This document shows, one piece after another, positions 18,001-24,000 of a stretch of 64,000 bases of DNA (its first letter is position 1; every line of letters begins with the position of its first letter). The position numbers were made by a program. The DNA comes from Escherichia coli (GTDB taxonomy: Bacteria; Pseudomonadota; Gammaproteobacteria; Enterobacterales; Enterobacteriaceae): the NCBI RefSeq assembly GCF_030384885.1, contig NZ_CP128614.1. One strand, written 5' to 3'.

Positions 18001-21000
18001 TTCCCTGATTGCTTTTCACCTCATACCAGTGCTGGCTCATACTTAGTCCTTAAGAAAATTTGTCATCGGAAAATAACACGAAGCCTGCATCATCGAGGCG
18101 CATAACCTTCTTCCCTTAACGCCTGTTGTAATTTATCAACTGCGCTTTTCATTACCCAGGCTTCTTCGTCACTCACAGCACAACCACGTAGATCGCTCCA
18201 GCTCAGACGTTTAACAAATTGAGCAAGGGCCATAGTTTCGTTCTCATCAAGCCGCAAACTCAGTGTCTCAATACCTTCCACAATCTAACCTCCCTTATAA
18301 TGAAAAATGGCGCTTTACTTCTGACCAGATGCCGAAGCCTTGAATGCAGCCGGAACTGTCGTTGTTTCTACTTTACAGAAATGGAATTAAAAAGTGGTGA
18401 TGCTGGGCACGTTTCTTTTCCAGCCGGGGTTTAAGCCAGAGCTGAAACTCATTCAACTTCTCAGCAGCCAAAACCGCTTCAACGGGGAAAACTTTATATT
18501 TACCCTGTTGCTGAGGTTCACCCAGCCATCGCCTGATGGCTCCGTCAGTCCATAAACGAGTCTCTTTTAGCCTAGTTACAGTGACCCATTTTCTGGACCA
18601 TTCATCAAATTGTCGCTGGCGATCCCGATAACGTTGTTCTTCCTGCTGCCGAAGCCACTCGCGATCAACAGCAAATTTTCGGTATCCAACAAAGAGCCCT
18701 TGTACTTTGGCCATGTCATATTCCGGTTGCTTAGAGTTACTCATTCAACCAAAACCTAAACGTCGATACAAACTCTGTTTCATAACCAGGGTTTTATCCT
18801 TACCGCGACAGTAAGTAACAGGGGCTGCATAAACCGGTCATTTAGTCCGTTATGCAAAAATTATTGAGGATCCGGGCTGTTAAACTGTTCTTCCTCTTTC
18901 GCTTCCGGTGAAAAGGGGAGGTGTCACCCTGCGAGCCCGTGTAGTGAAAGGGATTCGTCGTAATACAGGCCAAAGGCTAACATGACCGCAAAGGACGCCC
19001 GGGCGACCGGATACCTGCCGGGTTGTGCGATGTAAAATCCGGAAGCAGTGATAACACAAACAGGCCCCTACAGCGTAAGGATTGTGATGGACGATAAAGA
19101 GCAGTTTACGAATCTTGTGGCAAAGCATGCCTCCGGACTCACCGAAGAGCAGCTGGCCGGGTACGATGCCTGTTCCCTGGATGGTGAATGCGTCACGCCT
19201 TCATACGAGGTTTTCCGGGGGTATCGTACCCGCCACACACTGGATGAATTTCTGGAGATGGCCATATCGCTGAATGCCATCCACCCGGATGAATATTTAA
19301 CGGATATGCTGCTGAAGCCTCATGAGGTGATCGGCGCTCTGGCCGATGAAGGCGACCAGCTGAACAACGCCACCCCGGTTTATTTCTTTCCGGATACCGG
19401 CGTCTATGCAGCGGCCGTTAGTGAAACCCGGGTGCTCGATGCCTGGCTTTGCTGGCCATGCTACCCGGCGAACTGGTAACGCGGCCGTTGGAATTGCACC
19501 GGCCGGATACGAATTTAACCGATCCCGTGGCGGGAAGGCTATCAGAGTTGCATGTCCTCATCCCTCAAGCCCCCTGCCAGGCCCCAACGTGCTGTCAGGC
19601 TTCGCCTGATTCCCGATCTGCGCCGATACTTCAGCCGATAACTTTTTGTTTTCTTTTTATTTTCTTCCCATTTCCTCAAAAATCGCGGGCGGCGTGGACA
19701 GGGCACCATTGCCGCATGTGGGGTCTTAATAAGGGCAGGGTGGTCAGTTTTGCTCGATGCCATGGGTAGGCCCTCCCCTTCATGGGATGAGGACATGCAA
19801 GTAAGCTAACTATCTGAAATGACGAAGGTTCATTTGGTGAATGTCGCTTCATATTAATGTTGTGTCACTTATGATCGTATGTAGCTGGTTGCAAAGAGGA
19901 GCGATGAGACAATAAAGTTGTATCGCTAACAAGATTTATGCTGCCACATAGTAACAGCCTAAAAGTTGTACGCCCTATTTAACAGCTTTTAGGCTGTTAA
20001 TTTGATATTACAGCTTTTAGGGTGTATGTTTAGGAAACAGCCTGCAAGGTGTATCAGAGGAAACTACTGAGGCCAGCTTATGATCAATAATGATTACCCG
20101 TTAAACACGCTCAACCAGCTGCGTCCCTTGCTCATTGGTTTTCGCAAGGCGAATGGCCTGACGCAAAAAGACCTGTCCGAAAGGTTAGGCGTCACTCAAC
20201 AGACATACTCACGTCTGGAAGCCAACCCTGCCAGTGCGAGCATTGAACGGCTATTCAAGGTGTTTTCCATCCTGGGCGTAAAAATCAGCTTCTCCTCGGC
20301 AACCACCTCTTCAGAGAGGAAGCAGACGGAAGAAATGCTTAAATCAAACTCACCTGCACGACAGGAGGATTGGTAACGATATGAGCCGGAAACAGCAACG
20401 TCTGGTAATTTGGATGAACGGCATCAAAGTCGGGTACTGGGAAAAAAGCAAAGGGGTAGACAGCTTAGAATACCTTCCTGAATGGGTTGCTGACGAACAG
20501 GGAAGGCCGCTGTCATTGTCCCTTCCTTTTACTCCCGGGAACCAGGTCTGGCGTGGAAATGTGGTACGTGACTATTTTGATAATTTACTGCCGGACAGCG
20601 AAGGCATACGCAGACGTCTGGCAATGCGTTACAAGGCCGATAGCCTGGAGCCTTTTGATCTGCTGACGGAGCTGGGAAAAGACTGCGTGGGCGCGATACA
20701 GCTGCTTCATGACGGAGATGAACCCACTGATTTATATTCCGTGAAGTATCACCCGCTTACTGAATCAGAAATTGCGGCAACTTTGCGTAATACCACGGAG
20801 ACATTGCTACCGGGCAGGCCAGAAGATAACGACGACTTACGTTTATCTATTGCCGGTGCTCAGGAGAAAACAGCCCTACTGTGGCATGAAGATCGGTGGT
20901 GTATGCCGGAGGGTAATACACCAACGACGCATATATTCAAGCTACCGCTCGGACTTGTGGGGAACATGAAAGCCGACATGAGCTCGTCGGTTGAAAATGA

Positions 21001-24000
21001 ATGGCTCTGCTCGGTACTTCTCGGCCAGTACGGGCTCCCCGTGGCAAGAACGCAGATTGCTCACTTTGAAGATCAGAAAGCGCTGGTGGTAGAACGTTTT
21101 GACCGAAAATGGTCAGGAGACGGACAATGGATCATTCGTTTACCCCAGGAGGATATGTGTCAGGCCCTGGGCGTTTCGCCATTACGAAAATATCAGGCGG
21201 ACGGCGGGCCAGGTATATCGGAAATTATGGAGGTTCTGAGTAATTCAGACCGTGCTGAGCGTGACAAAGCGCAGTTTTTTATGACGCAGATAATTTTCTG
21301 GATGATGGCCGCAACAGATGGCCACGCTAAAAATTTCAGTATTTCTATTGGGCCACAGGGACGTTATCACCTTACACCAAACTATGATGTGTTGTCGGCA
21401 TGGCCGGTGATCGGTCATGGGAACAATCAGATATCCTGGCAGAAGTGCAAACTGGCGATGGCCGTACGTGGCAGTAGCAACTATTACCAGATATATCGAA
21501 TACAACGACGCCACTGGATCAGGCATGGTGAGATAACCGGCCTGAGTAAACAGCAGACAGAGGCGATGATAGAGGAAATCATCGCCAGAACCCCGGGTGT
21601 CATTGAACGTGTTAGCGGGCTTCTTCCGGACCAGTTCCCCCAGCAGCTTGCGGAAAGTATTTTTGATGGAATGAGGCAGCAATGCAGGCGCCTGGCTGAG
21701 AAATGACAGCCGCAATTTATAGTGTGCATGTTTTCAGAATAGCTGATGTAAGCGTGAGGATTCAGTATGACTGAAGAACAAAAAAGAATAGAGCGGGCTA
21801 TTGAGTTGGCTTGTCGTTACGGCGGAACCGATGAAATGCATCATCTGCAATGGGTCGTGGATCAGATGGTAAGAGAACTTGCTGGAGAACGTTATGCACA
21901 GATTGTAGCTGATGCCACCAGCGGAGAAGATGGGCCTGATACTTACAAATGGAGTGTTGGGATCGCGCCTTAACAGCTGTCGGTCTGGGGGTGAAAACGT
22001 ATTCTTCATTCAGCGAATTCCCAGGCTTCACATTAAGACTAAAGCGGCGGCCGCAGTAACGTAAGAGAAAATAAATGGCTATTTTAGCAATCATTGCAGT
22101 TATCGCCCTGGGTGGGTACGCCTACGGATTTATTAAAACCCGTGAGCTGAGCGCTTTGCGTAAAGAAATGAAACTATACGTGGATCGCATGGAAGCGGCG
22201 GAGCTGGACTTACACGCAATCAGAAGTGTAGCGGAGCACCGGTTGCACGGTGCAGGTAAACAGTTTGCCGACCTTTACAGCCGTATCGACGGTGCAACTG
22301 TGACGCTGACACCCGAAGATCAGCTGTTACTGGCAACGATGCCATTTAATATTCAGGATGTAGAAGACATCGTAAACGAGCGCGGTCCAAAGACAATTAG
22401 CGGCCGTCCATTCTGGGAAGTTGAGCCAGGCCCGCATGATTATGAATATGGCCCGCAATATCCGTATTTCCCAGACCAGCGCTAGGAAGAGATCAAGATG
22501 AGAGAGCCAAGACCACGCCATACCTTGCAGGTCATTCGTGTACCTTCTCTGGAGGTTCAGGACCTGGGGCTGACCAGCTTTGATAGCTGGCTTGACGAGC
22601 ACGGGTATGACAAAACGAATGCCAGAAATAACCGTACCATCTGGGCGAGAGAAGGCGGATGGCATCTGAAACGTTGCAGAAATCTTGAAACTGGCACGGA
22701 CGATTTCTGGTTTATCGCTTTCGATGGTAAAGGCGGGAAGATTTACCCGCTGAAAACCCAAAGAGACTACCGGGCTGCATATCGTAAGCTGGAAGCAGAA
22801 GGTTATGCGCCTGCGGTCATCGAGCAAATGACCACAGGCGCAGCATATAACCTGGCCTATCCACGTTCCATCCTAAAACAAGCTGAGACGGCCACCAGCG
22901 AGCCAATTCGGAAACCTGACGTAGATATCCAGGGTGAGCACTGCGAGCGCGTAGTGACGCAACGTAGTGGCGTGGCACAGGGTAAATTCAAAGCTCTGCT
23001 CATCGAGAATTTCGCAGGCCGTTGTGCGGTAACCGGTTGGGTTAATGGAGGTGTCCTGGATGCGGCACACATTGAACATGGAACCCGGTACAATCCGTCT
23101 AATGGCATCCTGATGACTCCAACAATGCATGCGCTGTTTGATGCCGATCTTATGGGCATAGATCCGGCCACCCTGACCGTTCATTTTAAGCCAGGCATTG
23201 AGGTGGGCGAGCTGTTTGAAGGCCGTAAAATCACACCGCTGGTGTACGATCTGGACTTAGAGCGGCTGGCCGTACGCTGGGCAGAATACCAGGGCCTTGC
23301 TCAGGACCAATGAAGGGTGACAGCCAGGTTGTGCCTAAACCTGGCAGTAAAACCTGCATGCCACAAACCTTTAAATTCTGACTCAAGAGCCTGGCACAAG
23401 ATAAAAGCGAAATGAAAAGGTTAAAACCGGTGCACCAGACCTCTTAGGTTTAATACCTGAGCCAGTATACTGGCAGTCTCAGGTAAGTGGGTATCATACA
23501 CTTCAGAAATATCCACACCGAGATAACCGCAACAGTTAAAGGGTGATGCTGCCAACTTACTGATTTAGTGTATGATGGTGTTTTTGAGGTGCTCCAGTGG
23601 CTTCTGTTTCTATCAGCTGTCCCTCCTGTTCAGCTACTGACGGGGTGGTGCGTAACGGCAAAAGCACCGCCGGACATCAGCGCTATCTCTGCTCTCACTG
23701 CCGTAAAACATGGCAACTGCAGTTCACTTACACCGCTTCTCAACCCGGTACGCACCAGAAAATCATTGATATGGCCATGAATGGCGTTGGATGCCGGGCA
23801 ACCGCCCGCATTATGGGCGTTGGCCTCAACACGATTTTCCGCCATTTAAAAAACTCAGGCCGCAGTCGGTAACCTCGCGCATACAGCCGGGCAGTGACGT
23901 CATCGTCTGCGCGGAAATGGACGAACAGTGGGGATACGTCGGGGCTAAATCGCGCCAGCGCTGGCTGTTTTACGCGTATGACAGGCTCCGGAAGACGGTT

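Follow-up and report, generated by a model that had tools for sequence, protein, structure and literature searches.

Two adjacent genes and a cluster of short repeats in front of them raise the question of whether a stretch of plasmid DNA in Escherichia coli encodes a genuine toxin–antitoxin module and, if so, how this module would be regulated. The stretch comprises 64,000 nucleotides of contig NZ_CP128614.1 (assembly GCF_030384885.1) and is referred to as the window throughout; an earlier note, made from its sequence alone, had pointed to a hipBA module with a repeat-rich operator. The locus is very probably a canonical two-gene hipBA type II toxin–antitoxin operon on an IncHI2 plasmid backbone. 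As noted earlier, a gene for a 98-residue helix-turn-helix (HTH) protein of the XRE type is followed, after a gap of 4 nt (cgat), by a gene for a 441-residue HipA-family kinase, and the list of open reading frames (ORFs) and the Pfam matches agree on this arrangement (Table 1). The locus possesses every sequence feature by which a classical HipA module is recognized, and the module looks fully functional. The feature as such is already known, since RefSeq and the IncHI2 literature had named hipBA beforehand. New, and minor, are the motif shared by the operators of this HipB subgroup and the way in which it varies together with the recognition helix.

The kinase and its Cro-type partner

The downstream gene product contains both HipA domains, Couple_hipA (PF13657, 3.7e-21, residues 9–108) and HipA_C (PF07804, 3.6e-51, residues 155–405), both above the Pfam cutoffs, and reaches 93.5 bits with the NCBIfam model of the HipA N-terminal domain (TIGR03071, cutoff 27.8). 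In a search against all PDB sequences, the best match is the E. coli HipA chain 2wiu_A (E = 1.4e-100, residues 7–431), with other E. coli HipA structures at approximately 1e-100, whereas HipA of Shewanella is far more distant (E = 3e-21). RefSeq names the product "type II toxin-antitoxin system HipA family toxin". The earlier assignment to the HipA-family kinases is hence borne out. Antisense ORFs within hipA, such as a 156-residue one at 21245–21715, were dismissed as mechanical ORFs, as they are unannotated in the RefSeq-derived tables of identical plasmids.

In E. coli HipA, Ser150 is autophosphorylated, Lys181 binds ATP, Asp309 is catalytic, and Asp332 binds Mg. The corresponding residues of plasmid HipA are S156, K187, D313, and D336. 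A global alignment with HipA of E. coli K-12 (NC_000913.3) gives 41% identity, and the positions that are identical (E. coli numbering) include G22, D88, S150, the Gly-rich loop at 152–158 (VAGAQEKT), K181, E234, D291, D309, H311, K313, N314, Y331, and D332; the DGHAKN motif, which holds D309, H311, K313, and N314, occupies 313–318 of the plasmid protein. The activation-loop region differs by a 2-residue deletion in the alignment. The loss of catalytic residues, which the earlier note had named as the observation that would speak against a HipA kinase, is not seen, as all residues checked are conserved. All four kinase motifs, which serve as a criterion for HipA kinases in PMC8262856, are intact. 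The overall architecture is the classical one (clade I of Gerdes et al. 2021, PMC8262856), with an N-terminal subdomain in addition to the kinase core, and the same-strand gene 4 nt in front of hipA, which encodes the HTH_3 protein, represents the adjacent gene for a putative DNA-binding antitoxin.

HipA is under purifying selection. Compared with the Cronobacter homologue described below, the proportions of nonsynonymous and synonymous differences are 0.21 and 0.76, the latter being saturated, and between the two IncHI2 lineages the ratio of nonsynonymous to synonymous substitution rates is 0.33 for hipA and 0.50 for hipB, both from few substitutions.

Two further groups of proteins share the HipA-homologous kinase core and the four kinase motifs, namely HipBST of E. 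coli O127:H6 and HipH/YjjJ. HipT lacks the N-subdomain of roughly 100 residues and requires the separate protein HipS (PMC8262856). In contrast, the N-terminal domain is fused within the 441-residue HipA of the plasmid, and the locus consists of two genes only, with no third, so that it does not belong to the HipBST type. It does not belong to YjjJ/HipH either, as the score against the YjjJ equivalog model is 25 bits with a cutoff of 401. No paralogue of hipB or hipA was found in a search of the 64-kb window.

The upstream product matches HTH_3 (4.5e-15), and HipB chains of E. coli take the first five places among its PDB matches (1.4e-06 to 1.9e-05). Its identity to E. coli HipB is only 26%, but the alignment of the HTH is free of gaps. 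The tail of plasmid HipB is longer by 10 residues, and the C-terminal tryptophan of the ending QEDW aligns with W88 of E. coli. This tryptophan is kept in six of six hipA-linked HipB proteins compared as well as in an orphan IncHI1B HipB; homologues bearing it come from Cronobacter, Ralstonia, Aeromonas, IncA, and IncHI1B. Structures from E. coli and Shewanella show the end of HipB lodged in a pocket of HipA (PMC4150777 and PMC8262856). The upstream XRE-type antitoxin gene of the earlier note is thus supported by the PDB matches and the tail of its product. The best NCBIfam models are the HipB equivalog NF007271 (41.5 bits, cutoff 79) and the Y4mF subfamily TIGR03070 (41.0 bits, cutoff 71.65), and because both scores stay below their cutoffs, RefSeq gives the product only the generic name "helix-turn-helix transcriptional regulator". 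By position, fold class, tail, and operators, the protein is, as read from its sequence, a HipB-type antitoxin and not an equivalog of E. coli HipB. RefSeq and PLSDB tables place the hipB start at 20083 (ATC, 97 residues), 3 nt downstream of an in-frame ATG (20080); with GAGG 7 nt upstream, the latter looks like the better start.

Four phased palindromes upstream of hipB

The earlier note had counted four AACAGC(C/T) motifs in front of hipB. A motif count returns the same four within 19953–20042, three on the plus strand at 19953, 19981, and 20036 and one on the minus strand at 19992–19998; at the density of this motif in the window (35 per 64 kb), the expectation for 90 bp is approximately 0.05. 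The pair AACAGCCTAAAAG / CTTTTAGGCTGTT described therein is an inverted repeat as claimed. In the window as a whole, AACAGCY is about two times more common than in shuffled sequences (35 versus 17 ± 4), which is probably a codon or composition effect unrelated to the operators.

The repeats are better described as four 18-bp imperfect palindromes of the form (T/A)ACAG-N8-NTGT(A/T), denoted O1 to O4 in Table 1. They follow each other in start-to-start steps of 28, 28, and 27 bp, leaving gaps of 10, 10, and 9 bp, and the whole block occupies the region from 127 to 27 nt in front of the hipB ATG; the earlier note had its element begin 1 nt further upstream than O1, at 19952. Of the two half-sites, (A/T)ACAGC on the left is near-invariant and GNTGT(A/T) on the right is looser. 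The pattern ACAGC-N6-GNTGT has five matches in the window (O2 being counted on both strands), all of them within the array, compared with 0.57 ± 0.88 in shuffles, where none of 100 reached five. This pattern was derived from the same sites, and independent support comes from its recurrence in diverged loci.

Table 1. Features of the hipBA locus, with positions given in the window
Feature	Position	Strand	Description	Basis
Operator O1 (predicted)	19953–19970		AACAGCCTAAAAGTTGTA	16 of 18 bases same as O2 in reverse orientation
Operator O2 (predicted)	19981–19998		AACAGCTTTTAGGCTGTT	perfect 6 + 6 palindrome AACAGC/GCTGTT
Candidate sigma-70 promoter	20002–20030	+	−35 TTGATA (20002–20007), 17-nt spacer, −10 TATGTT (20025–20030)	consensus match 9/12
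Operator O3 (predicted)	20009–20026		TACAGCTTTTAGGGTGTA	TACAGC in place of AACAGC
Operator O4 (predicted)	20036–20053		AACAGCCTGCAAGGTGTA	palindrome scan
Shine-Dalgarno of hipB	20069–20072	+	GAGG, 7 nt before the hipB ATG	read from sequence
hipB	20080–20376	+	98-residue Cro/C1-type HTH antitoxin and autorepressor (predicted), ends QEDW	HTH_3, PDB, alignment
Shine-Dalgarno of hipA	20363–20368	+	AGGAGG within the final codons of hipB, 12 nt upstream of the hipA start codon	read from sequence
hipA	20381–21706	+	441-residue HipA-family Ser/Thr kinase toxin (by homology)	Pfam, PDB, alignment, purifying selection, RefSeq name

The recurrence is seen at increasing distance. In the second IncHI2 lineage (pC45-VIM4), whose HipA is 97.7% identical, all four sites are present and changes within the sites occur only in the central spacers: the half-sites of O1 are unchanged with one central base differing, and two central bases differ in O4. 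Cronobacter sakazakii carries four sites in steps of 28, 27, and 28 bp on the IncFIB plasmid pCsaCS09c (also the ATCC BAA-894 plasmid NC_009780.1), whose HipA is 70% identical, and a Ralstonia solanacearum megaplasmid with a 52% identical HipA carries four TACAG-type sites in steps of 27, 27, and 27 bp. In both arrays, half-sites and spacing are retained and the central bases differ, and HipB likewise ends in tryptophan. These relatives, which belong to the same HipA subgroup, reside on other replicons in other hosts and are apparently annotated only. The operator pattern is absent from the remaining 4–8 kb of the pC45-VIM4, Cronobacter, and Ralstonia loci. The multiple HipB operators proposed by the earlier note thus appear as four predicted sites, whose number, half-site, and phasing are conserved in diverged hipBA loci. 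In Ralstonia (L006, 1106–1202), the last operator abuts the annotated hipB start.

A single consensus-like promoter, TTGATA-17-TATGTT, is found inside the operator array. Its spacer is taken up by O3, which extends into the −10 element by two bases; O4 follows 5 bp downstream. The second IncHI2 lineage has exactly the same candidate, and the Cronobacter equivalent, TTGCAT-18-TAAAAT, is similarly placed. A likeness between this −35/O3/−10 layout and that of E. coli was considered and dropped, as a promoter scan of the E. coli locus gave no match and the distance between TTGACT and TATAAT is 23 nt there. Rfam, searched over the complete window with gathering thresholds, gave no match, so that no RNA element was found in the long hipB leader or the upstream intergenic region. 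A further promoter-like match is located at 19848–19875, within approximately 450 bp (19480–19930) that contain no annotated gene or Rfam match.

The best-known relative is the chromosomal HipBA system of E. coli K-12 (b1508/b1507; PDB 2wiu, 3dnv, and 4yg7), from which the present locus differs by being plasmid-borne. Both have the gene order hipB–hipA, a two-domain kinase of 440 or 441 residues with identical catalytic and autophosphorylation residues, a Cro-type HipB ending in tryptophan, and four 18-bp 5-N8-5 operators within approximately 140 bp upstream of hipB. The published E. coli operators are palindromes of the form TATCC-N8-GGATA. Their steps are 28 bp for O1–O2 and O3–O4 and 39 bp for O2–O3, whereas the steps on the plasmid are even, and the two genes overlap by 1 nt in E. 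coli instead of being separated by 4 nt. The system of Shewanella oneidensis (PDB 4pu3–4pu5) also has four repeated palindromic operators, here of the form GTGTA-N6-TACAC (PMC4150777), one of which is inside hipB. Its gene gap is 3 bp, and the tail tryptophan, which in Shewanella sits in a pocket of HipA, is the penultimate residue there and the last one in plasmid HipB.

Half-site type and recognition helix change together. The helix of the TACAG group reads (V/M)(T/R)QQT(Y/L)(S/A)(R/A)LE, that of the plasmid being VTQQTYSRLE, whereas HipB proteins of E. coli K-12, IncA, and an Aeromonas plasmid share the helix IKQ(A/T)T(I/V)S(N/D)FE (IKQATISNFE in E. coli) and have TATCC/TAACC-N8-GGATA/GGTTA sites in place of the TACAG type. 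Both types of site are 18-bp 5-N8-5 palindromes. The E. coli-like group is exemplified by hipBA of IncA/IncC-type and Aeromonas conjugative plasmids, which resemble the present locus in being plasmid-borne with phased 18-bp operators, but which encode a HipA of only approximately 45% identity next to TAACC/AATCC-N8-GGTTA/GGATT sites. In front of its hipB, the IncA locus (L008) has four sites of the TAACC-N8-GGTTA type with a spacing of 27 bp; sites of the AATCC/TATCC type can also be seen upstream of hipB in the Aeromonas locus (L007), but the palindrome scan scored only one of them. The co-variation was read from only eight loci. The phased four-operator array appears to be a family trait, of which the present locus carries a specificity variant.

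An orphan hipB-like gene is found on pEB3_IMP1 (IncHI1B/IncP, NZ_CP141538.1; L010, 2412–2797). It encodes 98 residues that are 66% identical to HipB of the window and end in REKW, and two TACAG-N8-CTGTA sites are located upstream; neither hipA nor a hipA remnant follows downstream of it. The gene could be a leftover or an anti-addiction gene, and similar lone HTH genes were matched on other plasmids (H58 and H59). A bolder proposal is that the TACAG subgroup of IncHI2, Cronobacter IncFIB, and Ralstonia megaplasmids constitutes a specificity class that does not cross-talk with chromosomal hipBA of the E. coli type and that plays a part in plasmid competition, the orphan gene of IncHI1B serving to neutralize HipA of IncHI2. 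The kinase of IncHI2 might then also have a target other than GltX. This is a speculative and rather unlikely scenario.

Distribution, proposed mode of action, and alternative explanations

The plasmid-borne nature stated in the earlier note is evident from a 2-kb query, which is 100% identical to many IncHI2A plasmids from Salmonella, E. coli, Enterobacter, and others. In all, 1,186 plasmid records match the query, and 1,153 of these (about 97%) cover at least 80% of its length. In three of the plasmid records fetched, hipA is damaged beside an intact hipB: pENT-8a4 (L011, 1046–2368) has an 11-nt deletion that shifts the frame near codon 340, pA-CRECL416 (L012, 1046–2323) is rearranged near the 5′ end of the gene at codons 55–88, and in a Citrobacter IncC/IncP plasmid (L009, 2501–2914) hipA is truncated by IS26 after codon 131. 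A broken hipA next to an intact hipB is the pattern expected if the downstream gene encodes the toxic partner.

By homology to HipBA of E. coli and Shewanella, the following mode of action can be proposed. HipB dimers, with HipA as co-repressor, would bind the four sites cooperatively and repress the operon, O3 being located in the promoter spacer. HipB would keep HipA inactive in a HipA2HipB2 complex, with the C-terminal tryptophan docked into HipA. Once the supply of HipB ceases, as in a cell that has lost the plasmid, degradation of the antitoxin (in E. coli by the protease Lon) would free HipA. The free kinase would then phosphorylate an aminoacyl-tRNA synthetase, by analogy most probably GltX, whereupon translation would stall and the stringent response lead to growth arrest; HipA may finally inactivate itself by autophosphorylation of Ser156, the equivalent of Ser150. 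The net effect would be growth arrest of plasmid-free segregants, i.e. plasmid addiction, and possibly a drug-tolerant subpopulation. Such a persistence or addiction role is what is standardly inferred by analogy, and it is repeated in the IncHI2 literature.

Several points weigh against this picture. The candidate promoter matches only 9 of 12 consensus positions, and the region shows no excess of promoter-like matches (5 versus 3.2 ± 1.8 in shuffles). The spacing of 12 nt between the hipA Shine-Dalgarno sequence and the start codon exceeds the optimum. HipB falls short of the equivalog cutoff (41.5 versus 79 bits) and shares only 26% of its residues with E. coli HipB. GltX as the target is extrapolated from a 41%-identical homologue, and other HipA-family kinases use other synthetases (TrpS in the case of HipT). 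Finally, no experiment on this hipBA module was found in the literature searched, in which the papers list it only as a presumed stability system.

Alternative explanations concern the benefit of the module as well as its identity. An active hipBA could mainly provide its host with antibiotic tolerance or persistence instead of post-segregational killing, which is compatible with the addiction module described above. E. coli hipBA is the classic persistence locus (PMC8262856), the module rides on multidrug-resistance plasmids, and an IncHI2 plasmid has been linked to ciprofloxacin tolerance, but with hipAB listed only as a backbone maintenance module (PMC6617520). The positions of the high-persistence allele hipA7 (G22 and D291) exist in plasmid HipA in their wild-type form, whereas high persistence in E. 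coli requires gain-of-function alleles, and the conserved backbone position on approximately 1,150 large low-copy plasmids fits a role in maintenance; tolerance as the main benefit is hence possible but doubtful. Abortive-infection defense against phages, triggered by shut-off of host expression and decay of HipB, is improbable. Toxin–antitoxin modules in general can defend against phages (PMC8262856), and HipA weakly matches the PADLOC candidate family PDC-M03A (4e-5, 21 bits); yet, the PADLOC matches are weak and partial with those of HipB being generic to HTH proteins, no defense genes were recognized among the immediate neighbors, and the architecture is fully accounted for as a classical hipBA.

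That the upstream repeats are not HipB operators but a terminator of the upstream gene, plasmid iterons, or partition sites is very improbable, even though a terminator scan flags O2 as a hairpin with a T-rich tail (19979–20000). Four copies phased at 27–28 bp immediately precede hipB; they also accompany hipBA in the unrelated IncFIB and megaplasmid replicons and the orphan hipB of IncHI1B, and their half-site type shifts together with the recognition helix of HipB. Moreover, the stretch shared by the two IncHI2 lineages starts at 19931, shortly upstream of O1, so that the repeats are inherited along with hipBA and not along with the gene that precedes them. The least credible explanation is that of a decaying and functionally inert remnant. 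It could draw on the few plasmids with a frameshifted or IS26-truncated hipA, but both ORFs of the window are complete, no catalytic residue is lost, purifying selection is observed, and about 97% of the matching records retain at least 80% of the query.

The hipBA locus is one of the few recognizable maintenance modules of the IncHI2 backbone and may help to explain the persistence of these plasmids without selection. IncHI2 plasmids are major carriers of mcr, extended-spectrum β-lactamase, carbapenemase, and metal-resistance genes. In the literature, hipAB (or hipA–hipB) is listed among their backbone maintenance genes (PMC4855149, PMC6617520, and PMC6306219), whereas the addiction role is asserted only (PMC6306219 and PMC4855149); transcription of hipA/B from an IncHI2 plasmid is seen in Salmonella RNA-seq (PMC13183382). 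The maintenance role being already assumed, the present analysis adds the operator motif and the site map. It opens no new question, but the site map would ease footprinting, reporter, and curing work.

Neighboring features of the plasmid

Positions 7800–22300 of the window are 99.99% identical to pSTM6-275, the annotation of which places terZ through the last TerD-family gene (in the position of terE) at 10977–15526 and a VWA-domain gene at 15955–17196. The adjacency of the module to the ter island, as put by the earlier note, holds only loosely, as a distance of 2.9–4.6 kb, with five small hypothetical ORFs, separates the start of hipB from these genes upstream of it. The second IncHI2 lineage is similar over 19931–22926 only. 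This shared block comprises the operators, hipBA, the ORFs at 21767–21973 and 22075–22485, and part of that at 22498–23313; to its left, pC45-VIM4 has genes for a serine protease and membrane proteins, whereas the window has the hypotheticals of the ter side. The small ORFs at 18373–18744, 19048–19479, 21767–21973, and 22075–22485 have no Pfam match. A domain of the HNH_2 endonuclease type (3.2e-07) is found in the 271-residue product of the ORF at 22498–23313 (plus strand).

In the second half of the window, three copies of IS26 are located at 38311–39133, 42507–43329, and 61579–62401, and the segment 36763–38054 is identical to the stretch of pSTM6-275 between a transposase gene and blaTEM-1. 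Together, these copies and this segment mark a resistance region.

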